Positions 1 through 23,691 of a stretch of DNA of 32,000 nt are shown one piece after another (the stretch's first letter is position 1; each line of letters opens with the position of its first letter). This DNA is from Nostoc sp. PCC 7120 = FACHB-418. Lineage in GTDB: Bacteria > Cyanobacteriota > Cyanobacteriia > Cyanobacteriales > Nostocaceae. The stretch covers positions 4,140,001-4,172,000 of the forward strand of contig NC_003272.1 of assembly GCF_000009705.1 (NCBI RefSeq). The letters run 5' to 3'. The translations under genes and the position numbers were made by a program. A model generated the notes under the pieces. The model was not told the DNA's origin, did no database searches, and saw only the letters and a program-made list of their open reading frames with translations.

Positions 1-517
1 GTTCTACAATACCTTCGTTTACTGCATCAGCACTGAGTTTGCCTTGTTGCACCAGTTCCGCTACTTGACGACAGGCTCTAGTAATTTCGTTGCGACTGCC
101 ATAGTTGACTGCAACAGTAAAGTGAATTGCTTGATTATTTAATGTCTCTGTCATGGAGCGTTCCATTTCCGTTTGTAGTGACTTGGGTAATGCTGTCAAA
201 TCGCCAATAAAGGAAATTCTCACTCCTTCTCGGTGCATTTGCGATAATTCCCGGCGCAGTAATCGCTCAAATAAAAGCATCAGAAAATCTACTTCTTCGA
301 TGGGACGCTGCCAATTTTCCGTAGAGAAGGCGTAGGCGGTGAGGGCTTTGATTCCCCAATCTTTACAGCAGCGCAAGAGTTCTTTGAGTGTTCTTGCGCC
401 TTGGCGATGTCCGGCTATGCGTGGTAATCCTCGGCTAGTTGCCCATCTGCCGTTACCATCCATGATGACGGCTATGTGTTGGGGGATTTTTTGGGGATCT
501 AAGTCTGGGGGGGTCAT
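1..517 (-). CDS. uppS: isoprenyl transferase / undecaprenyl-diphosphate synthase (cis-prenyltransferase), 3' end cut by window edge
   Basis: Absent from the ORF track because it runs off the window. My reverse-complement translation from the ATG at 517-515 reads [72 protein letters not shown]... This carries the DGNGRWA and FSTENW signatures of the UppS family. Confidence 0.9.
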
Positions 518-577: not shown

Positions 578-1510
578 TTAACTACTTAGTAGATTGTTGA
601 GATATTTTGGGTTAAGGGTGTTGTGCCATGTCCACAGGCGGCGCATGGTTTGGGTTGATGTGTAGATGAGGGTGGCTTTGTTGGTGAGTGTCCAGGCGTT
701 CCAGTTAAGTGTATTCATCATGCGGCGTAGGGTTCGCATGAGGTTGTTACGTTGATAGGTTTGGGAACGGGTTTTGATGAGGGTGCGCCCTACTCGGATT
801 AGTCCTGTGTCAGGAAAAGCCCAAACTCCAAAGCCCCAGAATTTGGTCATGTGGTTGATTTCGTCTTTCGTGAGTTCTTCGAGAACTTCTTGGAGTGCGC
901 CTGTTGTGTGCGCCATTAGCCACAGGTAAAGGCAGGTTGCACCGTATTCTGTGGCTACGCGGTGTAAGCCGTGGCGATAGAGGTCTTCTTGGGGGTCATT
1001 TGTGGGGAGGTAGCCTCTGATTGTACGATGTTTAGGGGTGATTTTCTCCCCTGTTAATTGGGTGTAGATTTTGATTAATGCGGGTGTGTGTTGACGTTCT
1101 TCTTTTTCCCACAAACCAAGTTCTTGGAGTTCGCCATCTCCATCGACTGTTCCACCGACAAACCGCGCCATCTGGGGATGTAACTTTTCTAAATATTGCC
1201 GACTGGTTTGGGTGTAGCCTCGAATGGGGGCTTCTGTGTCCATTGCACCGATCAATATAGATAAAAATACTTCTGGTTCTATACCGATAATTTGGTTGCG
1301 GTTAATGGCTTGCCAGTCAATTAGTTTCCAGGGACGCGCTTGGGGATTGGCAAATTGTATCGGTAAATCTTGCAAGCGAGCGCGTAGTATTTCGACTGCA
1401 ATATATTTATCTATGAGGGAGCGAATACGGCTCTGTGTTTGCCAGTAGTGAGGATGAGCATAGCTTTGTGCCGCCGATGCTTCTAGTTGTGGGCTGGTGG
1501 TATCAAGCAT
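578..1510 (-). CDS. di-iron carboxylate (ferritin-like / acyl-ACP-desaturase-like) protein
   Basis: 310-aa ORF with two ExxH iron-ligand motifs in the expected context: WEKEERQH and TKDEINH. These compare with WTAEENRHG and ADEKRHE of soluble acyl-ACP desaturases. Co-directional with uppS, 60 nt upstream of it. Confidence 0.6.
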   Translation of the reverse strand: MLDTTSPQLEASAAQSYAHPHYWQTQSRIRSLIDKYIAVEILRARLQDLPIQFANPQARPWKLIDWQAINRNQIIGIEPEVFLSILIGAMDTEAPIRGYTQTSRQYLEKLHPQMARFVGGTVDGDGELQELGLWEKEERQHTPALIKIYTQLTGEKITPKHRTIRGYLPTNDPQEDLYRHGLHRVATEYGATCLYLWLMAHTTGALQEVLEELTKDEINHMTKFWGFGVWAFPDTGLIRVGRTLIKTRSQTYQRNNLMRTLRRMMNTLNWNAWTLTNKATLIYTSTQTMRRLWTWHNTLNPKYLNNLLSS

Positions 1511-1563
1511 AATTTTTATACTATGACTTCTATGCCCAATAGCCTAAGCGATCGCACCAGCGT

Positions 1564-1625
1564 TTGTCAGTCGGCTAAAGTCGGCAGTTTTATGTGATTC
1601 AGTTGGAAAAGTCAGGGAAAAAGTC
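1564..1625 (+). repeat. intergenic repeat copy A (TTGTCAGTCGG ... GGAAAAGTCAGGGAAAAAGTC)
   Basis: Shares TTGTCAGTC(G/A)G and the GAAAAGTCnGG-AAAA(A)GTC box with copies at 3334-3371 and 3713-3741. All three copies are in the same orientation. Confidence 0.6.
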
Positions 1626-1665
1626 TTTGGTTTAGTATATATCTATTGTATAGAGTTTATTAAGT

Positions 1666-2568
1666 ATGAAAGTCTACGATATATACTCAAAGCGTCAAAC
1701 AAGGCTAAGAGAAGAATTTCCTGATGTTTATCAGTATGTTGATATCCCTCAACCGCTTCGCGTGCAGATTGCTTACATTATTTATGATGTTATAGCTGAA
1801 CCTGTAGATATAGAATTAATAAAGAGTTTTAGCGAAATTTATAGCAGACTATACCGTGAATACGGTAAGTTAAAACAATCAATTGTAGGCAAGGATATAA
1901 TTAATCTTTTTATGTTCAATACTGAGAAAACAGAACATACTCTTGATTTTATAGAGTTAAGTTTTAAATTGATTGACTATACATATAGAAACAGAATGGC
2001 ATTTATTAAAAATTCAAAAATTACAGCCGATGAAGCAATTAAAGAATTAAACTTCAGGTTTAGAGAACACGGATTAGGTTATCAATATGAGTCAGGTAAA
2101 ATTATCAAAATTGATTCTCAGATAATTCATGCTGAAGCAGTCAAGCCAGTTTTACACTTGCTAAGTGATAGCAGATTTCAGGGAGTGAATGAGGAATTTC
2201 TAAAAGCACACGAACACTACAGACATGGACACTACAAGGAATGTCTTGTTGAATGTCTCAAGGCTTTTGAGAGTACTATGAAAACTATATGTGATACTCA
2301 AGGATGGAGTTACCAGCCTGGAGACACAGCTAAAAAACTTATTAATGTTTGCTTTCAGAACAATCTAATTCCTACTTATTTACAAGACCAATTTTCTTCA
2401 CTTAGACAAAATCTTGAAAGTGGAGTGCCTACCATGAGAAATAAAAATGGTGGTCATGGTCAAGGTTCTCAACCACTTAATGTCCCACAATACTTTGCTG
2501 GCTATCAACTTCATATGACGGCAAGCACAATCCTATTTTTGTTAGAAGCAGAGAAGACGCTGCCTTAA
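1666..2568 (+). CDS. AbiJ-like abortive-infection protein (AbiJ-type N-terminal domain plus C-terminal HEPN)
   Basis: The N-terminus MKVYDIYSKRQTRLREEFPDVYQYVDIPQPLRVQIAYII matches my recollection of the STM4504/AbiJ-NTD family (FSKRQ..PDVY.YD.IP..LRVQI). The C-terminus has an Rx5H HEPN motif, R258-NKNGG-H264 (nt 2437-2457). The gene is visibly AT-richer than its neighbours and has no HIP1 site. Confidence 0.65.
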   Translation: MKVYDIYSKRQTRLREEFPDVYQYVDIPQPLRVQIAYIIYDVIAEPVDIELIKSFSEIYSRLYREYGKLKQSIVGKDIINLFMFNTEKTEHTLDFIELSFKLIDYTYRNRMAFIKNSKITADEAIKELNFRFREHGLGYQYESGKIIKIDSQIIHAEAVKPVLHLLSDSRFQGVNEEFLKAHEHYRHGHYKECLVECLKAFESTMKTICDTQGWSYQPGDTAKKLINVCFQNNLIPTYLQDQFSSLRQNLESGVPTMRNKNGGHGQGSQPLNVPQYFAGYQLHMTASTILFLLEAEKTLP

Positions 2569-2582
2569 AGTTAATTTTTACT

Positions 2583-3263
2583 TTATTCTGGCAGTTCTCC
2601 AAATTGCTGGCGATAACGCTCAAGTTGTTTTTGTACTGCTTCTAGCTGTTCTTCTGGGGTTTGATATCGCTTTCCTTGTTGGTCATACCAATATAAAACC
2701 TGACGCTGTAAATCACCAGAAATATACTGTCCTCTACCAATTCCCAACCCAATTTCTGACATCCAAAAGGGTTCACCGATTTGTAATTGGTAGCCACCAT
2801 TTACTAGACGATAAACTTCAAAAGGTTGGTGGCGATCGCGCTGCCAATACTCTGGATTATAAATAATGTAGTATAGTACCCCTAGCTTGGCGTAAGTATC
2901 TAATTTCTTGTCGTATTCTCCACCAGGAGTTAAAGAGACAATTTCTAAAGCCAGTATAGGTGCAATATTGTCTTCTTCCCAAACAACATAGCTTTTACGA
3001 GATTTATCTGCTTTGCGGCGTTCTACACCTAAGCTCAAAAATCCGTCCGGCACAATTGGCACAAGTGGACTGACCCCTGTTGTATGATAAACGCCCATAT
3101 CAACACCGAAAAACCAGTCTTTACGGTTTGCCCAAATATATTCCAGTAAGAATAGGAGCAAGTTGGGAATAAAATTTTGGTCTTCGTTATCCACAGGGGT
3201 ATCGTCTGAACAAGGAAGTTCAGCACTGCTAGGTAAAGAGAGGCGAGGGTCGGATTTCACCAT
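2583..3263 (-). CDS. Uma2 (DUF820) family restriction-endonuclease-like protein
   Basis: 226 aa. Typical cyanobacterial Uma2 layout: IPNLLL...W...D..VY....SPLVPD.F, LALEIVS (PD-(D/E)xK core), Y.KLGV.YYIIYNP. The C-terminal tail is coiled-coil-like. Confidence 0.8.
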   Translation of the reverse strand: MVKSDPRLSLPSSAELPCSDDTPVDNEDQNFIPNLLLFLLEYIWANRKDWFFGVDMGVYHTTGVSPLVPIVPDGFLSLGVERRKADKSRKSYVVWEEDNIAPILALEIVSLTPGGEYDKKLDTYAKLGVLYYIIYNPEYWQRDRHQPFEVYRLVNGGYQLQIGEPFWMSEIGLGIGRGQYISGDLQRQVLYWYDQQGKRYQTPEEQLEAVQKQLERYRQQFGELPE

Positions 3264-3333
3264 AGATAATGATGGTGTTGAGATGACCTAATGATTTTTA
3301 TTGTATTCGACAATAGGGCTTTATTGTTTGCGC

Positions 3334-3371
3334 TTGTCAGTCAGGTTTAGAAAAGTCTAGGAGAAAATCGG
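3334..3371 (+). repeat. intergenic repeat copy B (TTGTCAGTCAGG ... AGAAAAGTCTAGGAGAAAATCGG)
   Basis: Lies immediately 3' of the PTP-like gene stop (3377). Same orientation as copies A and C. Confidence 0.6.
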
Positions 3372-3376
3372 ATGTC

Positions 3377-3706
3377 TTAATATGTACCTAACAACGGCAG
3401 CACTTTTTTCTTTAATATCTCAATTAAAGCTGGTTCCATATACTCAAATTCATCTGGTATATCTAAACATATAACTCTTTTATTTTTGAGAAAAGGCTGG
3501 AAATTTTTGGCTAATTTCTGTTTATGTAGCTGCTCCATAACAAAAATAATATCAGCCCATTCGATAGCTTCTGAGGAAACTGGAACCTCTGCATAATGGT
3601 CTAAACCCGCCGAATCCGTTTCCAATCCTTCATATTCAGCAAATACAACCTCAGCAGTGGGACTACGCAATCTATTTTGACTACAAATAAATAAAATTTT
3701 CTTCAT
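3377..3706 (-). CDS. short low-molecular-weight phosphotyrosine phosphatase-like protein
   Basis: 109 aa. N-terminal P-loop ILFICSQNRLRS fits CX5R(S/T). Only about two-thirds the length of canonical LMW-PTP/ArsC-type enzymes. Confidence 0.65.
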   Translation of the reverse strand: MKKILFICSQNRLRSPTAEVVFAEYEGLETDSAGLDHYAEVPVSSEAIEWADIIFVMEQLHKQKLAKNFQPFLKNKRVICLDIPDEFEYMEPALIEILKKKVLPLLGTY

Positions 3707-3712
3707 GATTAT

Positions 3713-3741
3713 AAAGTCAGAAAAGTCTGGTAAAAAGTCGG
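3713..3741 (+). repeat. intergenic repeat copy C (AAAGTCAGAAAAGTCTGGTAAAAAGTCGG)
   Basis: 7 nt upstream of the PTP-like start codon and 91 nt upstream of the STAND gene. Three AAAGTC boxes are followed by the palindrome GATTCatcGAATC (3741-3753). Confidence 0.6.
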
Positions 3742-3831
3742 ATTCATCGAATCTTATCCGAAAGATGGGGCAGAAGAATTGTAGATTAACCTATAGTTCT
3801 CAAATTTAACTACCCTCGTCATTGCATAATA

Positions 3832-6207
3832 ATGGACGCTGAAGCAGCATTAGCATGGTTAGACACCATAATTCCTGCTCAGACCGGGGAACGGTTGAGC
3901 GATTTGCAAAAAGTTATTGTTGTGCAGGTTTGGTTGGGTAGGAAATATTTGGATATTGCCCGTGCTTATGGTTGTACGGAAGGACACGCTAAGGATGCTG
4001 GCTCACATTTATGGAAACTGCTTTCTCAAGTACTGCGGGAGAGGATTACCAAGAGTAATTGTCGCGCTACGTTGGAACGAGTGCTGAGAAAAACTACGGC
4101 TATATCTGGTCTAATTGATTACCAAAAATTGACCCAACAACCTACACCTAAATTAGAGGATAGCAATTTTTTAGGTAGGGAGGAAGCGATCGCTCACCTA
4201 AATACTCTAGTAAATCCAGGCTCGAAAGTGATTGTCGTCCAAGGTGAGGGGGGTTTAGGCAAAACTACTCTCGCCCAGCAATATCTCCAAACTCAGGGTT
4301 TTGACTTGGTTTTAGAACTGTTAATGGCGAAGGAAACCCAAAACATTACCCCGGCGGAACGGGTGGTGGAAGAATGGCTCAAACAAGACTTTGGGGAAGA
4401 ACCAGGGGTAGAGTTTGGTGTGACGTTGGGACGACTCAAGCGCCAACTCCACAATCGGCGGATTGGGGTGTTAATTGATAATCTGGAACCTGCATTAGAT
4501 CAACAAGGTCGTTTGATTCCGCTTCACCGCAATTATGTAGAACTGTTGCGGGTTTTGGCTGATGTTAGGGTGCAGTCGGTAACGTTGATTACTAGCCGCG
4601 ATCGCCTGTGTGAACCTGGTTTAAATGTGCATCACTATCGGCTTCCAGGTTTGGATCAAAGCGCATGGCAAAAGTTTTTTAGTAACCGTGGGTTAACTAT
4701 CAACTTGCCTATCTTGCAACAAATACATCATACTTACGGCGGTAATGCCAAAGCAATGGGGATTCTCTGCGGGGCGATGCAGGAAGATTTCGGCGGGGAT
4801 ATGGCGCTTTATTGGCAAGAAAATCATGGTGATCCTTTAGCCGCAACAGATTTAAAGAATTTAGCGGTGAGTCAAATTAATCGTTTGCAAGCCCTTGATC
4901 CCCAAGCCTATCGCCTACTGTGCCGTTTGGGATGTTATCGTTACCAAGATATACCCACCATTCCCTCATCAGGACTGTTTTCTTTACTTTGGGATGTTCC
5001 CGCGTCTGAACATCGTCAACTTATTGCTTCCCTGAGAAATCGCTCTTTAGTGGAGTGTCATCAAGGGGAATATTGGCTACATCCGGTAATTCGCGCCGAG
5101 GCGATCGCTCGTTTACGTACCAGTGATGAGTGGGAAATAACCAATCACAAGGCTGCCGATTTTTGGACAGCTAGTATTCCCAAAATTGCCACATTTCAAG
5201 ATGCTTTACAAGCGCTAGAAGCATATTATCACTACATAGACATCAACGAATTTGAGTTAGCAGGTAAGGTAATTCTCAAGAGTCGCAATAATCAATGGCA
5301 GCAGTTTTTACCCTTGGGAAGTACCTTGTATCGGATGGGTTTGATTCAGCCGATATTAACAGCAATTAATCAAGTTTTAAAAAATATTCAGCATGACCAA
5401 AACTTAAGTGAATTGTACAATATATTGGGTGATTTACATTGGATAACAGGGAATATTAGTCAAGCGATCGCCTGTCAGGAAAAAACCATCAATCTGACAA
5501 CACAAGCCCTGAAATCACTCGTACCGCAACCAGAGAATAAACATAAAGTCTACTATTTGAGAATGTTAGAAGTAGATTCTCTCTTAAGTATTGGTCTTTA
5601 TAAGATAGATTTGTGGGAACTGGAAGACGCTGCCAAATTATTTCAACAAGTAATTTACCTAGCCCAAAATACAGACCATCATCGCTGGGCAGAAAAAGCT
5701 TCTGTATGTTTAGCCTTAGTCAATTCATACTTAGGTTTATGTGATGCTGCTTATTTATTAGCAGATGTAGCTTACCGAAATATTAAAAAAGAAGCAATTA
5801 TAGAGACAGGAAGATTCGCTTATTTCATTCAAATATTAGGTCAAACCTATGTTAATTTAGGAGACTTTACCAAAGCAAAGGAAATGTTTCACCAAGCTTT
5901 GACCTTTGCGGAAGAAAGCCATTATATGCAGGTTAAAGCAAAAACCCTGAATGGATTAGCAGAAATTCATCGCCAACAAGCAGATTATCCATTAGCCCTG
6001 GCTTATCATACAGAAGCAATCGAACTTTTAGATAAAATCGGCGCTAAATGTGACCTAGCTGAAACCTATTTTCAATTAGGTTTAACTTATAAAAAAATGG
6101 CAAAGTCTGATGCCAGTCAAAAGTATTTTACTCAAGCAATAAATTTATTTACAGAAATTAAAGCCCCTAATCAAGTTGACAAAATTTCCATAACTGCCAG
6201 TTTTTAG
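3832..6207 (+). CDS. STAND NTPase: N-terminal HTH-like module, NB-ARC ATPase, C-terminal TPR array
   Basis: Walker A VVQGEGGLGKTTLAQQY. Walker B RIGVLIDNLE. NB-ARC-like TLITSRDR and GGNAKAM (GLPL-like). C-terminal TPR-like repeats, for example LGQTYVNLGDFTKAKEMFHQALTFAEE and YFQLGLTYKKMAKSDASQKYFTQAINLF. The N-terminal LSDLQKVIVVQVWLGRKYLDIARAYGCTEGHAKDAGSHLWKLL resembles a sigma-70 region 4/LuxR-type HTH. Confidence 0.8.
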   Translation: MDAEAALAWLDTIIPAQTGERLSDLQKVIVVQVWLGRKYLDIARAYGCTEGHAKDAGSHLWKLLSQVLRERITKSNCRATLERVLRKTTAISGLIDYQKLTQQPTPKLEDSNFLGREEAIAHLNTLVNPGSKVIVVQGEGGLGKTTLAQQYLQTQGFDLVLELLMAKETQNITPAERVVEEWLKQDFGEEPGVEFGVTLGRLKRQLHNRRIGVLIDNLEPALDQQGRLIPLHRNYVELLRVLADVRVQSVTLITSRDRLCEPGLNVHHYRLPGLDQSAWQKFFSNRGLTINLPILQQIHHTYGGNAKAMGILCGAMQEDFGGDMALYWQENHGDPLAATDLKNLAVSQINRLQALDPQAYRLLCRLGCYRYQDIPTIPSSGLFSLLWDVPASEHRQLIASLRNRSLVECHQGEYWLHPVIRAEAIARLRTSDEWEITNHKAADFWTASIPKIATFQDALQALEAYYHYIDINEFELAGKVILKSRNNQWQQFLPLGSTLYRMGLIQPILTAINQVLKNIQHDQNLSELYNILGDLHWITGNISQAIACQEKTINLTTQALKSLVPQPENKHKVYYLRMLEVDSLLSIGLYKIDLWELEDAAKLFQQVIYLAQNTDHHRWAEKASVCLALVNSYLGLCDAAYLLADVAYRNIKKEAIIETGRFAYFIQILGQTYVNLGDFTKAKEMFHQALTFAEESHYMQVKAKTLNGLAEIHRQQADYPLALAYHTEAIELLDKIGAKCDLAETYFQLGLTYKKMAKSDASQKYFTQAINLFTEIKAPNQVDKISITASF

Positions 6208-6238
6208 ACCACCACTTCCCCTAAACCCACCTTTCAAG

Positions 6239-6445
6239 CTAAATTCCACGTCCTGGCTTACAATCTACGAAACCTAATGCTTCTGTGTCCAGAAAACTGG
6301 CGATCGCCATCTCAATGACTGCTTCAATAGGATACTCAATTTCCGTGGCACGAGCGATGAGAGCATCTCGAATTCGCTCAGGTAGACGCTCTAAAATGAT
6401 TTCGGCATCAACGGCAGAAAGTTGCTCGTAGATTTTGGTCGCCAT
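6239..6445 (-). CDS. small ribbon-helix-helix-like protein (68 aa), putative partner of the upstream GIY-YIG protein
   Basis: I prefer the ATG at 6445 (MATKIYEQL...) over the ORF-track start at 6475, because a GAAAGGTGAAGC Shine-Dalgarno-like string sits just 5' of it. The pattern LPERIRDALIARATEIEYPIEAVIEMAIASFLD fits strand-helix-helix. It starts 4 nt after the GIY-YIG stop. Confidence 0.5.
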   Translation of the reverse strand: MATKIYEQLSAVDAEIILERLPERIRDALIARATEIEYPIEAVIEMAIASFLDTEALGFVDCKPGRGI

Positions 6446-6449
6446 AGCT

Positions 6450-6827
6450 TCACCTTTCGGTTGGAATTTGGACATTATAAGGCGGTTCAGTAGCTCTCAG
6501 GATGATTGCTTCTAACTCCAATAGTAACCCAGGGTTTTCCCAGTAAGAAATTTCTTGCCAGGCAATCCGCACATCTTTATCTTGATACTGATCAAGCCAC
6601 GCCCACAGAAAAGCCTTGTGTCCACCACTGAAACGTCCCCGCAAACTCTTAGTTTTACCGATGTAGAGTAACCCATCATTTTTGTGCCTGATTGCATAGA
6701 TACCAGGATGAGGAGGAATATCGTTAAATTCACGGTTCAATGGCTGGCATTGTTCAAACGGAGTAAAGGCGATTATATCTAAGATTCTCCGAGCTTGAGC
6801 TTGCAGTTCAGAGTCTTTCGTTGCCAT
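6450..6827 (-). CDS. GIY-YIG nuclease domain protein
   Basis: GIYAIRHKNDGLLYIGKTKSLRGRF contains the GIY, YIG and conserved Arg motifs. A later E (LELEAIIL) fits the catalytic Glu. I prefer the ATG at 6827, since the ORF-track start at 6869 is a TTG. Confidence 0.75.
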   Translation of the reverse strand: MATKDSELQAQARRILDIIAFTPFEQCQPLNREFNDIPPHPGIYAIRHKNDGLLYIGKTKSLRGRFSGGHKAFLWAWLDQYQDKDVRIAWQEISYWENPGLLLELEAIILRATEPPYNVQIPTER

Positions 6828-7163
6828 GAAAATAAAAAGGCTAATTACACAGGATTTATGTTCCCACAAATTTTGTCCCAGCCTAAATATTGAGCGCCAT
6901 CATTCAATTGAACATGAACAAATATTGATAACAAAATTTGCTGAACTTTAAGATTCATGTAATTTGCCAAGCCTGGAGTTGTTTCCAGTACAACCTGAAT
7001 CATAATCAGGAAGTAGTTTTGAGCGAATCGCCACACGAAAAGACCCCGAAACACCCCACTTCATGGCGGCTACAAGTTTTGGGACAATCAGCATCAACAA
7101 ACTAATCAAGCACTTATAGTCCCGTTTTGATGATTATTCAAGTTTACAAGGGAGTAAAACATA

Positions 7164-8690
7164 ATGAAATTGGCTTACTGGATGTATGCAGGCCCCGCCC
7201 ACATTGGCACTTTGCGAGTCGCAACTTCATTTAAAAACGTCCATGCTATTATGCACGCGCCTCTGGGTGATGACTACTTTAATGTCATGCGCTCAATGCT
7301 ATCGCGGGAGAGGGACTTCACACCAGTAACAACCAGTGTGGTTGACCGCCATGTTTTAGCCCGTGGTTCTCAAGAAAAGGTGGTAGATAATATTACCCGC
7401 AAAGATGCAGAAGAACGCCCAGATTTAATTGTCTTAACTCCCACCTGTACCTCCAGTATTCTGCAAGAAGACCTAGAAAACTTCGTCGAACGCGCCCAGT
7501 TGGAGGCAAAAGGGGACGTGTTGCTGGCGGATGTGAACCACTATCGGGTAAACGAACTGCAAGCAGGCGATCGCACTCTCCACCAAATTGTTCAATACTA
7601 TATTGAAAAAGCCCGCAAAAAAGGCGAACTCCCAGAAGGTAAAACCGCCAAGCCCTCAGTTAACATCATCGGCATTTCTACCCTGGGGTTCCACAATAAC
7701 CACGACTGCACCGAACTCAAAAGGCTGATGGCTGATTTGGGAATTGAGGTCAACGCGGTCATTCCTGAAGGCGCTTCTGTTCACGAGTTGAAGAATTTAC
7801 CCAGAGCTTGGTTTAACCTCGTTCCTTACCGGGAATTGGGTTTAATGACAGCTAATTACCTAGAAAAGGAATTTGGCACACCTTGCATAGATATTGTGCC
7901 AATGGGTGTAGTAGAAACTGCCCGTTGTATCCGTAAGATTCAGGAAGTGATTAACGCTCAAGGTGCTGATGTTAATTACGAAGACTACATCAACGAGCAA
8001 ACCTTGTATGTATCCCAAGCTGCTTGGTTCTCCCGTTCCATCGACTGTCAAAACCTGACTGGTAAAAAAGCCGTTGTTTTTGGCGACAACACCCACGCCG
8101 CCGCCTTGACAAAGATTTTGTCACGAGAAATGGGGATTCACGTTGTTTGGGCGGGAACCTACTGCAAGTATGATGCTGATTGGTTCCGCGAACAGGTAAG
8201 CGAGTATTGCGATGAAGTTCTGATTACCGAAGATCATGGGGAAATTGGGGATGCGATCGCCCGTGTTGAACCCTCTGCCATCTTCGGTACACAAATGGAA
8301 CGCCACGTTGGTAAGCGTTTAGATATTCCTTGTGGTGTGATTGCTGCACCCATTCACGTACAAAACTTCCCCATCGGTTACAAACCATTCTTGGGTTATG
8401 AAGGAACCAATCAAATTACCGATTTAATCTACAATTCCTTCACTTTAGGTATGGAAGACCACCTATTAGAAATATTTGGTGGACACGATACGAAGGAAGT
8501 AATTACTAAAGGTATTTCTGCTGGTTCTGACCTGAGTTGGACAAAAGATGGCTTGGCAGAATTGAATAAAATTCCTGGTTTTGTGCGCGGAAAAGTCAAG
8601 CGGAATACAGAAAAATTCGCACGCGATCGCGGTTTCAAAGATATCTCAGCAGAGGTGTTATATGCAGCCAAGGAAGCGGTAGGAGCATAA
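7164..8690 (+). CDS. chlB: light-independent protochlorophyllide reductase subunit B
   Basis: 508 aa. [46 protein letters not shown]... is the canonical ChlB N-terminus. Length and C-terminus are as expected. A GGGAG Shine-Dalgarno-like string lies upstream. Confidence 0.95.
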
Positions 8691-20340: not shown

Positions 20341-22437
20341 ATGGTAACTCCAAATAAAGAAAAAGCATTATTACTGTTACGTCAGGCATTAGATAACCCA
20401 ACATCTAATTTTCGTCCAGGACAGTGGGAAGCAATAGAAGAATTAATTGAAAGGCGATCACGTTTACTCGTCGTCCAACGTACTGGCTGGGGTAAAAGCT
20501 TAGTTTATTTTTTAGCAACAAAACTATTGAGAGATAAAGGTGCTGGCTGTACCCTTTTAATTTCACCCCTACTAGCCTTGATGCGAAATCAAATTGCAGC
20601 CGCACAACGCATTGGAATCAAAGCTGCAACAATTAACTCTAGTAATCAAGATGAATGGCGAGCCGTCAAAACACAATTATTAGCAGGACAAGTAGATATT
20701 TTACTGATTTCCCCTGAAAGACTAGCTAATAATGATTTTAGGGAGAATATTCTCTTACCAATATCTCAAAGTATAGGCTTATTTGTAGTTGATGAAGCCC
20801 ATTGTATTTCTGATTGGGGGCATGACTTTCGCCCTGATTATCGGCGAATTGTGAGAATTTTACAAGGACTACCAAAAAATATTCCTATCCTCGCTACAAC
20901 GGCTACTGCTAATAACCGAGTTATTGATGATATTATCGCTCAATTAGGTGCTAATTTGCAGGTTGTGAGAGGTAATTTAACTAGAGAAAGTCTGCGGTTG
21001 CAAAATATTTCCCTTCCCAGTCCAGCAGCAAGAATGGCTTGGTTAGTCGAACAATTACCTCAACTACCTGGAAGCGGAATCATCTATACATTAACAGTGA
21101 GAGATGCTAATCGGGTTGCTAACTGGTTACAAACTCAAGGCATTAATGCTAAGTCATACCATAGCGATTTAGAAAGTGATATTCGTATAACATTAGAAGA
21201 CGAACTATTAAATAATCAAATTAAAGCTTTAGTAGCGACTACGGCTTTAGGTATGGGTTTTGATAAACCAGATTTAGGTTTTGTGATTCATTATCAACGC
21301 CCTGGTTCGGTTGTCCACTATTATCAACAAGTAGGCAGAGCAGGTAGAGCAGTAGACATTGCTTATGGCATTCTTCTGAGTGGTGATGAAGATGAGGAAA
21401 TTACTAACTACTTTATTAATACAGCTTTTCCCCCACAAATTCATACTCAACAGGTTCTGAACATACTCAACCAAGAAGAAGGTCTTTCAGTACCACAATT
21501 AGAACAAAAATTAAATCTTTCTAGAGGACAAATCGACAAAGTTTTAAAACTGTTATCATTGGAATCTCCTAGCCCAGTCACTAAAATAGATTCTAAATGG
21601 TATGTGACTGCTATTAACTATCAATATGATGAACAAAAAATTGCCAACTTAACAGCAATTCGCCGCCAAGAACAAGCCACAATGTCAGCATATATGCAGA
21701 GTCAACAATGCTTAATGGCTTTTCTGGCAACCGAATTAGATGACGCAAATCCGCAAAATTGTGGTAAATGTGCTGTTTGCGTAGGTAGACCTTTGCTACC
21801 AGTAAATTGTTCAATAGAAATGCTAAATCAAGCTGTTTTATATTTACGTCGCAGTCAACAAATCATTGAACCGCGTAAACAATGGCCCTCACAAGCATTA
21901 CTCAGTTATAAATTTTCTGGAAATATTAGCAATAATTTAAGGGCGCAGGAAGGAAGGGCATTATCATTGTGGGGTGATGCTGGTTGGGGTGAATTAGTAA
22001 AACAAGGTAAATATAGAGATAATTATTTTAATGATGTATTGGTGCAAGGTACTGTAGAGATGATTAAACGTTGGCAACCACAACCGTTTCCTAGTTGGGT
22101 GACTTGTGTGCCTTCATTAAATCGTCCAGAACTTGTACCAAACTTTGCTCAAAGGTTAGCTGAGAAGCTAGGTATAACTTTTGTGCCAATTGTGCGTAAG
22201 GTTAAGCAAACACAGCTACAGAAAGATATGAGCAACAGTTACCAACAAGCTCATAATTTGGATGGCGCATTTAAAATTGATGCTTGGCCAGGAATTGGTG
22301 GTTCTGTATTCTTAGTGGATGATATGGTAGATTCCCGTTGGACTTTTACTGTAATTGCGGCGCTTTTACGCGGTGCTGGTAGTGGACAGGTTTTTCCTGT
22401 GGCATTAGCCCTCAATACATTAGGTCAAGGGGATTAG
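20341..22437 (+). CDS. RecQ-family helicase fused to a C-terminal ComF-like phosphoribosyltransferase domain (PsyrT/RqlH-like)
   Basis: Helicase motifs: VVQRTGWGKSLVY (I), FVVDEAHCISDWGHDFRPDY (II, RecQ-type), LATTATA (III), HYYQQVGRAGR (VI). Cys cluster CGKCAVC. C-terminus: WVTCVPS...QTQLQKDMSNSYQQAHNLDGAFKI...VFLVDDMVDSRWT, the ComFC/PRTase layout with an atypical PRPP loop (DSR in place of TTG). Confidence 0.8.
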   Translation: MVTPNKEKALLLLRQALDNPTSNFRPGQWEAIEELIERRSRLLVVQRTGWGKSLVYFLATKLLRDKGAGCTLLISPLLALMRNQIAAAQRIGIKAATINSSNQDEWRAVKTQLLAGQVDILLISPERLANNDFRENILLPISQSIGLFVVDEAHCISDWGHDFRPDYRRIVRILQGLPKNIPILATTATANNRVIDDIIAQLGANLQVVRGNLTRESLRLQNISLPSPAARMAWLVEQLPQLPGSGIIYTLTVRDANRVANWLQTQGINAKSYHSDLESDIRITLEDELLNNQIKALVATTALGMGFDKPDLGFVIHYQRPGSVVHYYQQVGRAGRAVDIAYGILLSGDEDEEITNYFINTAFPPQIHTQQVLNILNQEEGLSVPQLEQKLNLSRGQIDKVLKLLSLESPSPVTKIDSKWYVTAINYQYDEQKIANLTAIRRQEQATMSAYMQSQQCLMAFLATELDDANPQNCGKCAVCVGRPLLPVNCSIEMLNQAVLYLRRSQQIIEPRKQWPSQALLSYKFSGNISNNLRAQEGRALSLWGDAGWGELVKQGKYRDNYFNDVLVQGTVEMIKRWQPQPFPSWVTCVPSLNRPELVPNFAQRLAEKLGITFVPIVRKVKQTQLQKDMSNSYQQAHNLDGAFKIDAWPGIGGSVFLVDDMVDSRWTFTVIAALLRGAGSGQVFPVALALNTLGQGD

Positions 22438-22443
22438 AAGACG

Positions 22444-23691
22444 ATGTTAAATCATGTTTTGCCACCGGATACTCAAGCAATTTTGCTCTTGTGTGCTAGC
22501 TTTGGGCAAAGTCGCCAAGTTGAACCACAACCCTTAACCTTAAGTGAGTATAATTCTTTAGCTGAATGGTTGCTGCAACAGGAAATGCGTCCAGCACATT
22601 TACTCGAATCAACAGTAAAAGAACAATTAAAACAACTTCATATCAGTAAACTTGACCCTGAGAGGCTGTTAGCTTTATTAGCACGGGGCGCAATGCTAAG
22701 TTTAGCCGTAGAAAAATGGACAAGTCGCGGATTATGGATACTTGGACGTAGTGACGCACAGTATCCTAAACTACTGAAACAGCGTCTAAAACATTCAGCA
22801 CCAGCAATTCTTTATGGCGTTGGCAAGATTGAACTTTTGTCACAGGGAGGACTAGCAATTGTCGGTTCCCGTGACGTAGATGAAGAGTTACTTGCTTATA
22901 CGCGAAAAGTTGCAGAAACTAGCGCTTTAGACGGAATGCAGGTAATTTCCGGTGCAGCCCGTGGTGTAGACCAAGAGGCTATGTTAAGTATTTTGAATGC
23001 TGGAGGCACATCTGTTGGTGTACTGGCGGATAGTTTGACCAAAGCCGCAGTCAATAGCAAGTATCGCTCCAGTCTTAAAGAAGGTAGACTAGCGCTAATT
23101 TCTAGTTATGATCCTGACGCTGGTTTCAATACTGGTAATGCAATGGGGCGCAACAAGTACATTTATGCTCTAGCTGATTACGCCCTTGTAGTTAATTCTT
23201 CTTTCGGTCAAGGAGGTACTTGGGCTGGTGCGGTAGAGGCTCTTTCTCGACTCAAAGAAATACCAGTCTTTGTGCGAATGGCTCCAACCGCATCAGAAGG
23301 TAATCGGCAATTACATAATCAGGGAGCAAAACCTTTTCCACCTGAACCTTGGAATGGTTCTTTAAATAAACTATTAGCAAAAGCTAGTTCTCTGGTTGAA
23401 TCGATTGATACCAATATCATCCAGCTTCCTCCAGAAAAATCCCAGGATACACAAAGCCACGAGTTATCATCAACCCCGCAAAACATCTATGAAGCTGTTT
23501 TACCTTTCATTCTTGGTCATTTACAGCAACCAAAGGATGCAAAAACTTTGGCACAATGTTTAGAAGTCCAACCATCTCAAATGCAAGAATGGTTGAAAAA
23601 AGCAGTACAAGAAGGGAAAGTGAGAAAAACTAATAGGCCAGTGGCTTATATAGCTAATCAACTTGTCACTCAACTTTCTTTATTGTCATAA
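22444..23691 (+). CDS. DprA/Smf-like (SLOG-fold) protein with C-terminal winged-helix (PsyrA/RqlI-like)
   Basis: LAIVGSRDVDEE, VISGAARGVDQEA, GVLADSL, MGRNKYIYALADYALVV and GGTWAGAVEAL match the DprA Rossmann core. The C-terminal IYEAVLPFILGHLQQPKDAKTLAQCLEVQPSQMQEWLKKAVQEGKV looks like a wHTH. Starts 6 nt after the helicase stop. Confidence 0.75.
   Translation: MLNHVLPPDTQAILLLCASFGQSRQVEPQPLTLSEYNSLAEWLLQQEMRPAHLLESTVKEQLKQLHISKLDPERLLALLARGAMLSLAVEKWTSRGLWILGRSDAQYPKLLKQRLKHSAPAILYGVGKIELLSQGGLAIVGSRDVDEELLAYTRKVAETSALDGMQVISGAARGVDQEAMLSILNAGGTSVGVLADSLTKAAVNSKYRSSLKEGRLALISSYDPDAGFNTGNAMGRNKYIYALADYALVVNSSFGQGGTWAGAVEALSRLKEIPVFVRMAPTASEGNRQLHNQGAKPFPPEPWNGSLNKLLAKASSLVESIDTNIIQLPPEKSQDTQSHELSSTPQNIYEAVLPFILGHLQQPKDAKTLAQCLEVQPSQMQEWLKKAVQEGKVRKTNRPVAYIANQLVTQLSLLS

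Follow-up and report, generated by a model that had tools for sequence, protein, structure and literature searches.

The interval between positions 1511 and 7163 of a 32-kb stretch of the Nostoc sp. PCC 7120 chromosome (the window) is probably a mosaic, composed of a resident regulator-like STAND gene (alr3437), a cargo hotspot between this gene and all3433, and a separate mobile gene pair encoding a GIY-YIG nuclease-domain protein and a 68-aa protein. The tags all3433 and alr3437 were taken from a published table (PMC10287535), those of alr3434, all3435 and all3436 were inferred by numbering, and the adjacent uppS corresponds to all3432. The window proteins have exact matches in BAB75132-75135. 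A preliminary description of this DNA had placed six open reading frames (ORFs), here g1 to g6, in the interval, with orientations +,-,-,+,-,- and all with nucleic-acid-attack or sensor themes, and had left two alternatives, a composite module of a STAND sensor with effectors or a small defence hotspot. The six ORFs and their orientations were reproduced, and profile searches bear out the domain names given to the AbiJ-like, Uma2, low-molecular-weight protein tyrosine phosphatase (LMW-PTP), NB-ARC-TPR and GIY-YIG ORFs. The phosphatase (g3), however, has neither of the two themes.

Between all3433 and alr3437 lies a genuine variable cargo hotspot. Its left anchor, all3433 (578-1510, minus strand), encodes a protein with two ExxH motifs that exactly matches BAB75132, a "ferritin-like domain-containing protein", and its right anchor is alr3437 (g4; 3832-6207, plus strand). 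We anchored 80 loci on all3433, from species-representative genomes mostly of Nostoc, with some of Tolypothrix, Calothrix, Aliinostoc and Trichormus, and mapped the window genes on all of them. The all3433 orthologs of these 80 Nostoc-type loci share 78-98% identity. Between anchors conserved at this level (78-98%), 46 different gene contents were found in 58 species genomes, in spacers varying from 203 to 4260 nt. The uppS-to-chlB interval that had been treated as a single islet is therefore variable in its all3433–alr3437 part, but the STAND gene in it is fixed.

Recurrent cargo includes two different antitoxin+PIN pairs, SUKH/SMI1 proteins, a pentapeptide-repeat protein and a PhoX-like protein. 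There is also an HNH protein with a match to type IV restriction enzymes (1.9e-24), and a fused PARIS-like AriAB/OLD nuclease (6e-30) occupies the slot of one species. Ordinary cargo is also present, such as a histidine kinase, a WD40 protein and a signal peptidase, and in A. variabilis the place of the AbiJ-like and Uma2 genes of PCC 7120 is taken by a hydrolase, a short-chain dehydrogenase/reductase (SDR) and an oxidoreductase. No recombinase domain was found in any scanned cargo variant. Since the content varies and includes recognised defence genes, the small defence hotspot of the preliminary description is supported for this slot, which is conflict-rich rather than purely defensive. Among the STAND-bearing loci (56-58), 33-36 have Uma2 and 7 the AbiJ-like gene, and only the closest relatives have the phosphatase and the GIY-YIG gene. 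In three Tolypothrix/Calothrix genomes the site is empty, with a spacer of ~200 nt containing one copy of a short repeat, which we call R, carrying both flanks. In a genome of the A. variabilis type (L152:2840-7749), the slot contains a 137-aa ORF, an alpha/beta hydrolase, an SDR, a pyridine-nucleotide disulfide oxidoreductase and a 65-aa ORF, and ends with the same phosphatase cassette adjoining the STAND gene; the hotspot thus also takes metabolic cargo.

R (GAAAAGTCnnGnnAAAAnTC) is found in the window at positions 1606, 3350 and 3720, on the plus strand only and nowhere else in the 32 kb. With a chance expectation of 0.13 and three matches reached in none of 100 shuffles, these copies substantiate the shared intergenic repeat that had been noticed before. 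It is a locus-specific element of 22 nt with two direct AAAAGTCGG half-sites 12 nt apart. R1 (core 1606-1625) ends the conserved upstream segment of all3433 (1561-1626, plus strand). R2 (3336-3373, plus strand; core 3350-3369) is preceded by a shortened all3433-side flank (TTGTCAGTCAGG), and R3 (core 3720-3739) is followed by the conserved alr3437 upstream segment GGATTCATCGAATCTTATCCGAAA (together 3719-3763, plus strand). Across the loci, R lies ~118 nt from the all3433 ortholog in 43 cases, with a conserved segment (TTTTGTCAGTCGGCTGAAGTCGGCAGTTTTATGTGAT…) before it, while in 52 it stands ~95 nt ahead of the STAND start and is followed by the nearly invariant GGATTTACAGAATCTTATCCGAAAA. It marks both cargo ends and some of the internal junctions, and several rightward cargo genes, like alr3437, have a copy directly upstream.

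This element is locus-specific. Of the 128 matches to its regular expression in 1.5 Mb, about 100 fall within this spacer, all in one orientation, and apart from the search pattern the remaining 22 have nothing in common with R. In metagenomes, every cyanobacterial match adjoins orthologs of all3433 and alr3437. The other metagenome matches, which make up most of the total (L083-L144, coral-type contigs), were discarded as coincidental, being part of an unrelated 12-nt minisatellite (AAAAGTCGGGAA/AAAAGTCGAGAA)n. An nhmmer profile of R, searched for decayed copies, added nothing and even missed the copy at 3350. In Fischerella and Rivularia, two R-like elements stand 150-210 nt apart with no cargo between them. 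The simplest reading of these positions is that R would be a cis-element of both divergent promoters. We also considered that each insertion duplicates R, an idea weakened by these cargo-free pairs, because of which the duplication of R need not come from insertion.

The comparison of PCC 7120 with N. parmelioides FACHB-3921 (L001) shows how the content changes. The flanking DNA of both genomes is 94-96% identical, and two whole units differ: PCC 7120 has the AbiJ-like and Uma2 genes between R1 and R2, while in N. parmelioides an antitoxin+PIN pair stands instead, with an R-like copy on one side and the STAND-side R on the other. The breakpoints between both genomes fall inside R, R2 being one of them. 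In seven genomes, the antitoxin+PIN cassette next to all3433 is flanked by direct repeats of 85-95 nt, which consist of a promoter segment plus R and begin at a GCGATCGC site. On the other hand, many junctions (AbiJ–Uma2, Uma2–antitoxin) are devoid of R, with breakpoints ~20-40 nt away. We suggest that the spacer between two R-bearing promoter regions would have tolerated insertions and so become a cargo hotspot, each cargo item being probably self-contained. Homologous recombination, within the conserved anchors and from one copy of R to another, could then bring cargo in and remove it, which would explain both the differences by whole R-bounded units and the duplicated R/promoter segments at some internal junctions. 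Homologous recombination is favored here because of the many junctions without R and their breakpoints 20-40 nt off.

The right anchor, alr3437, is a resident gene of the order, that of the heterocyst-forming cyanobacteria, and not accessory cargo. Of the 68 loci with sufficient flank, 56 have an ortholog beside that of all3433, and its mean identity is 84.2%, against 81.5% for all3433. The best 120 of the homologs listed are full-length orthologs with 66-93% identity, from Nostoc, Calothrix, Tolypothrix, Fischerella, Scytonema, Rivularia and Mastigocoleus. There is a single ortholog across Nostocales, always divergent from all3433–uppS, its ancient neighbors, and 313 of 791 aligned columns are invariant over 17 sequences, with every domain conserved, including the TPR array. 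In Fischerella sp. JS2 and Rivularia sp. PCC 7116, uppS and the all3433 ortholog are separated by a spacer of ~420 nt from the divergent STAND gene, with no cargo. Because the orthologs are conserved and the same divergent order is kept in Fischerella and Rivularia, we place alr3437 outside the accessory islet. The preliminary description had counted it as an islet member, which fails for this gene, as it is syntenic and conserved in Nostocales (84% vs 81% identity).

Two observations concern other copies of the STAND gene and their surroundings. In a metagenome-assembled genome (Nostoc sp. P12650, L056:3137-3973) the ortholog is split in a 278-aa ORF, with the helix-turn-helix (HTH) domain and the P-loop, followed by the remainder, a split due either to a frameshift or to faulty assembly. 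Downstream of the STAND gene, many Nostoc genomes (L018, L028, L035, L037, L041 and others) have a 515-640-aa protein, a Uma2 paralog and a 663-aa AAA ATPase, and no chlB. The 515-640-aa protein looks DUF4157-like by eye, but a Pfam search gave no match. As this block replaces chlB, the downstream side of the STAND gene is also rearranged between lineages.

The domain composition of alr3437 is that of a putative regulator. Its N-terminus (first 95 residues) corresponds to PF26355 (HTH_VMAP-M9) in the precomputed Pfam annotation of the orthologs. The AlphaFold2 model of this part (pLDDT 88.5) has a fold matching almost exclusively the HTH of sigma-70 region 4 and LuxR-NarL-FixJ proteins, with TM-scores up to 0.7 on the target and a root-mean-square deviation of 2.2 Å to NarL, and a sequence search of this part against the PDB gave no meaningful matches. 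The NB-ARC domain scores 25.7 bits (cut-off 23.5), with a Walker A motif GEGGLGKT and a Walker-B-like VLIDNLE, TPR_12 is found at 2e-19, and there are matches of TPR_MalT-like type as well. There is no enzymatic effector domain in the protein, nor any match to an Avs profile in PADLOC, which returned only a generic TPR model. Since the gene is under order-wide purifying selection and fixed in position, a regulatory household role seems the better explanation, and we infer that alr3437 is a regulator, possibly of the divergent all3433–uppS pair, rather than an immune sensor serving its neighbors.

Published expression data are consistent with a common control of these genes. At 9 h after nitrogen step-down, the three conserved genes were induced about 3-fold, with log2 changes of +1.35 for all3432, +1.67 for all3433 and +1.55 for alr3437, and of +1.64 for alr3437 at 24 h, while the transcription units between all3433 and alr3437 are absent from the nitrogen-regulated list (PMC10287535, supplement 2). 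The same source gives an antisense unit, TU02239, opposite alr3437 (PMC10287535). It could be speculated that the timing of induction of all3432, all3433 and alr3437 fits heterocyst envelope formation. Upstream of alr3437 we noticed a second conserved footprint, CTGTAGAnTnAnnTATAGTT (3770-3830 of the window), with a near-palindrome TAGATTAA(T/C)CTA, ~40-60 nt before the start codon, which could be an operator or a -10 region.

On the other side of alr3437 lies the pair formed by g6 (6450-6827, minus strand), the first gene, and g5 (6239-6445, minus strand), the second one. With the likely starts placed at the ATG at 6827 for g6 (125 aa) and at 6445 for g5 (68 aa; annotated as 78 aa from 6475), the genes are separated by a 4-nt gap, and these lengths match those of hundreds of homologs. 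The g6 protein has a GIY-YIG domain (PF01541, 50.2 bits against a cut-off of 22.6, 3e-13), in which GIYAI…LLYIG…RGRF…LELE is readable. It has 800 homologs, the best 120 of the 800 at 72-97% identity and hosted by Nostocales, Synechocystis sp. PCC 7509, Leptolyngbya, Microcoleus, Phormidium, Symploca and others. For g5, 1835 homologs were found, mostly of 68 aa, with 79-91% identity. No Pfam, NCBIfam or PADLOC model matches g5, and no PADLOC model matches g6. The structural model of g5 has three helices (pLDDT 79), and its best fold matches, which are weak, are ribbon-helix-helix (RHH) proteins such as CopG, Arc and VapB.

In four genomes of different orders, g5 follows g6 by 4-5 nt, in unrelated contexts: flanked on both sides by type I restriction genes, along with Uma2 and PIN genes; next to a DUF433/DUF5615 pair; next to a HEPN_Swt1 protein; and, in Microcoleus (L149:1231-3520), together with a 215-aa ORF between two opposite-strand fragments annotated ERCC3_RAD25_C and Helicase_C, as though a helicase gene had received the insertion. 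The module is 80-86% identical across cyanobacterial orders, and its DNA homology to these other orders (76-86%) begins up to ~48 nt before g6 and reaches as far as the stop codon of g5. Trichormus sp. M33 (L017) lacks, between alr3437 and chlB, the segment that carries both genes in PCC 7120 (6196-6923). Because the pairing is conserved, the contexts are unrelated and the homology is confined to the pair, g6+g5 is a conserved, horizontally spreading module independent of the STAND gene, which would have landed between alr3437 and chlB. Judging from its build, we take it most likely to be of toxin–antitoxin type or a selfish nuclease. The GIY-YIG gene with an RHH-like partner of the preliminary description is thus a real conserved pair, 4-5 nt apart in four other genomes, but not one tied to the STAND gene. 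In the alr3437–chlB spacer of Aliinostoc sp. HNIBRCY26 (L020:6981-7220) there is g5-like sequence and no GIY-YIG gene. We rejected this case as a g5 standing alone, since the copy, read by eye in the printed DNA, contains an insertion of ~25 nt that brings an in-frame stop, and it is probably a decayed remnant.

The three genes inside the slot of PCC 7120 are unrelated accessory genes. The first one, g1 (alr3434; 1666-2568, plus strand), is sporadic cargo, present in 7 of 58 loci and missing from that of N. parmelioides. Its profiles are AbiJ_NTD4 (1e-20), DUF7014 (6e-52) and the NCBIfam model STM4504/CBY_0614 (NF046078, 5e-121, 403 bits vs a cut-off of 150). The motif RNKN(G/A)GH, a HEPN-type Rx5H in the C-terminal domain, is invariant in 8 orthologs, and the G+C content of g1 is 0.32-0.35, vs 0.50 in the left flank. 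A sequence search against the PDB gave no meaningful matches for g1. From these profiles, g1 is an AbiJ-like HEPN protein and a candidate abortive-infection RNase. The second gene, g2 (all3435; 2583-3263, minus strand), encodes a Uma2 protein of the PD-(D/E)xK type (PF05685, 7.5e-13, 48.8 bits vs a cut-off of 27). Its orthologs share 84-93% identity and are absent from the empty-site genomes and from N. parmelioides; within Nostoc, no other gene has resided in the slot for so long, g2 having been inherited since early Nostoc.

The third gene, g3 (all3436; 3377-3706, minus strand), lies only 3 nt and 12 nt from its two flanking R copies, as a bare-ORF cassette. The LMWPc profile scores 31.9 bits (cut-off 23.2), and the P-loop ICSQNRLRS is found at residues 7-15 (C8-x5-R14-S), with a possible DP-loop acid within IPDEFEY. 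The protein has only 109 aa, vs ~150 aa for the full LMW-PTP fold, its matches to YwlE are partial (residues 4-31 and 15-72), and the NCBIfam Wzb model gives 20 bits against a cut-off of 243. Relatives are found in N. spongiaeforme and N. piscinale at another locus, beside lgt, where the DNA homology (82-84%) covers exactly the 330-nt ORF, so that the g3 of PCC 7120 would be a relocated bare ORF.

Other readings of the interval have to be weighed against the mosaic. In a composite defence system, the STAND protein would sense infection and work with the HEPN, PD-(D/E)xK and GIY-YIG nucleases as one module. The genes adjoin, STAND proteins with TPR sensors are known as antiviral sensors, the HTH type of alr3437 is common to VMAP conflict proteins, and the AbiJ-like protein matches the PADLOC candidate PDC-S32. 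The expected co-occurrence of the genes with the STAND gene was not found, however, as this gene has 46 neighbor sets and, in Tolypothrix, Calothrix, Fischerella and Rivularia, no such neighbors at all. The AbiJ-like and Uma2 genes are missing from the closest relative, and four other orders have the GIY-YIG pair where there is no STAND gene. No model of Avs or of another system matches, and the mixed orientations indicate that no operon spans the islet. The co-occurrence data contradict this alternative of the preliminary description, and we regard it as highly improbable. It is also quite unlikely that the region is an ordinary one, with common accessory genes of Nostocales side by side by chance at a site that is not special. 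This would agree with the great abundance of Uma2, PIN, HEPN and STAND genes in filamentous cyanobacteria, with the further Uma2 paralog that other Nostoc genomes have downstream of the STAND gene and with the absence of any complete system in the PADLOC results. Nevertheless, the 46 contents in 58 species with both anchors fixed, and the clustering of breakpoints at a locus-specific repeat, would not be expected for a random intergenic site.

The copies of R themselves allow two further interpretations. R could be an attachment-type site for a recombinase encoded elsewhere, regenerated at each junction in a site-specific cassette array (integron-like or by tandem att accretion). R is indeed present at both cargo ends and some internal junctions in one orientation, empty sites with one R exist, near-identical genomes differ by whole R-bounded units, the bare phosphatase ORF hugs two R copies, and the antitoxin+PIN cassette has its flanking direct repeats of 85-95 nt. 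No integrase was found, however, in the window or in the scanned cargo variants, R is a direct repeat without an inverted-repeat core, and its sequence suggests no potential for an attC-type hairpin. The orientation of the cassettes is mixed, many junctions lack R with breakpoints ~20-40 nt off, distant genomes carry two R-like elements without cargo, and the very high conservation of R and its flank fits a regulatory element. We consider such an array unlikely. In the other interpretation, which seems rather unlikely to us, Alr3437 would be a conserved sensor of multicellular cyanobacteria whose HTH binds the AAAAGTCGG direct repeats of R, and this one STAND sensor would control plug-in cargo toxins and nucleases (AbiJ-like, PIN pairs), since each new unit would land by, or bring, a copy of R. 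In a weaker version, R may be an attachment site of a new kind that works with no recombinase encoded at the locus. Both versions agree with the locus specificity and single orientation of R, with its place just before several rightward cargo genes and alr3437, and with its duplication at certain internal junctions.

Some observations weigh against the mosaic reading or parts of it. Homologous recombination alone leaves unexplained the regeneration of R at internal junctions, the 85-95-nt repeats around the antitoxin+PIN cassette and the trimming of the phosphatase cassette to its ORF, all of which look more like site-directed insertion. R was searched in 21-kb pieces of the other genomes. The HTH fold matches of alr3437 have E-values of 0.1-1, weak as is expected of a 60-residue domain and not significant alone, and the fold matches of g5, with E-values above 2, are not significant alone either. 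The link to nitrogen regulation comes from one published RNA-seq data set. Finally, Pfam named PF26355 after the variable middle regions of VMAP proteins, which were proposed as components of conflict systems in multicellular bacteria (Kaur et al., PMC7159879); given this origin of the family name, alr3437 might have a conserved conflict-sensor role.

In the left flank, which is conserved, the 5' part of uppS (1-517, minus strand) shows DGNGRWA in its translation and the gene is called PF01255 (Prenyltransf) in the orthologous loci. On the right, the housekeeping gene chlB (7164-8690, plus strand) matches TIGR01278 at 2.6e-236, and it adjoins only in the lineages of PCC 7120, A. variabilis, N. 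parmelioides, Aliinostoc and Trichormus. Together with the two ExxH motifs of the di-iron-type gene all3433, these results confirm the flanks given before. No tRNA was found in the 32 kb and no integrase or transposase domain among the scanned ORFs of the window, so the statement that this is not a classical integrative island, with no integrase, transposase or tRNA at its borders, also stands. An Rfam scan of 1-12 kb gave nothing real, its sole match being a snoRNA at E 0.73, and a scan for promoter and terminator consensus was uninformative, with fewer promoter-like sites than in shuffles. PADLOC profiles gave candidate or generic matches only: PDC-S32 for g1 (1.6e-8), a weak PDC-S03 for g2 and TPR for g4. 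Searches for the locus tags in the main texts of the literature returned none, and among the titles and abstracts listed there was no paper bearing on these genes for Uma2 or for GIY-YIG toxin–antitoxin pairs. Elsewhere in the window, at 20341-23691, a DEAD/ResIII helicase (698 aa) is immediately followed by a DprA-like/SLOG protein (DNA_processg_A, LDcluster4; 415 aa), a pair that resembles a two-gene nucleic-acid module amid housekeeping genes.

The mosaic has some implications for the study of such loci. A STAND protein among nucleases is not automatically an immune sensor, and alr3437, as a core gene of the order induced on nitrogen step-down in a model organism, deserves study as a regulator. 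The slot is compact and very active, in a genetically tractable cyanobacterium, and its empty, single-cargo and multi-cargo states would allow insertion and loss to be followed experimentally; it could also serve as a neutral landing site. The pair of the GIY-YIG and 68-aa proteins is a widespread, uncharacterised and nearly invariant cyanobacterial module, which may represent a new family of toxin–antitoxin systems or selfish nucleases. Should the regulation of cargo through R be true, the locus would be a modular, transcription-based immune locus.

Among known systems, the STAND transcription regulators AfsR (SARP, NB-ARC and TPR) and MalT (NTPase, TPR-like region and LuxR HTH) share with alr3437 the combination of HTH, NB-ARC and TPR. 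The likeness extends to its position, divergent from a conserved putative target operon, and to purifying selection over the whole length. It differs from them in the HTH family, PF26355, and its profile matches to AfsR and MalT are confined to the TPR part and below the cut-offs. With Avs and other antiviral STAND NTPases it shares the NTPase core and the C-terminal TPR sensor, but alr3437 is a fixed single-copy ortholog across the order, not a patchy gene, and has no effector domain. In the case of g1, the AbiJ N-terminal domain and the C-terminal invariant Rx5H are common to AbiJ of Lactococcus and to STM4504/CBY_0614, although the C-terminal domain of g1 is filed in Pfam as DUF7014 and not as a named HEPN family; its match to PDC-S32 spans the N-terminal two-thirds only.

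The g6+g5 pair resembles type II toxin–antitoxin modules with RHH antitoxins (VapBC, ParDE) in having two small co-directional genes, for a nuclease and a small DNA-binding-like partner. Like these modules and the free-standing GIY-YIG homing genes, it has spread into unrelated sites, often among restriction-modification and toxin–antitoxin genes. In contrast with type II modules the nuclease gene comes first, and in contrast with homing endonucleases g6 is without a DNA-binding extension. We know of no characterised GIY-YIG toxin of the g6 type.

The hotspot shares with integron gene cassettes the short, sometimes bare ORFs, the recurring separator sequence and the fixed chromosomal site. It differs from them in having no intI and no attC-like imperfect palindrome, mixed orientations and many junctions without the repeat. 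Models of an integron or a tRNA island were ruled out by the absence of a tRNA, of an integrase domain in the scanned ORFs and of an attC-like structure. Integration hotspots and defence islands, concepts reportedly set out by Makarova et al. in 2011 and by Oliveira, Touchon and Rocha in 2017, likewise have conserved anchors around a variable short spacer rich in toxin–antitoxin, nuclease and defence genes, with no integrase or tRNA, and this literature is said to attribute sites free of both to homologous recombination in the flanks. Unlike them, the slot described here lies inside a divergent promoter region and is bounded by copies of a 22-nt cis-element, with longer promoter pieces duplicated at some internal junctions and tiny cargo units (0.35-1.7 kb) that include plain metabolic and signalling genes. 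The kind of feature is thus already known, and what is unusual is the locus-specific repeat at the cargo junctions and the nearly invariant GIY-YIG pair.

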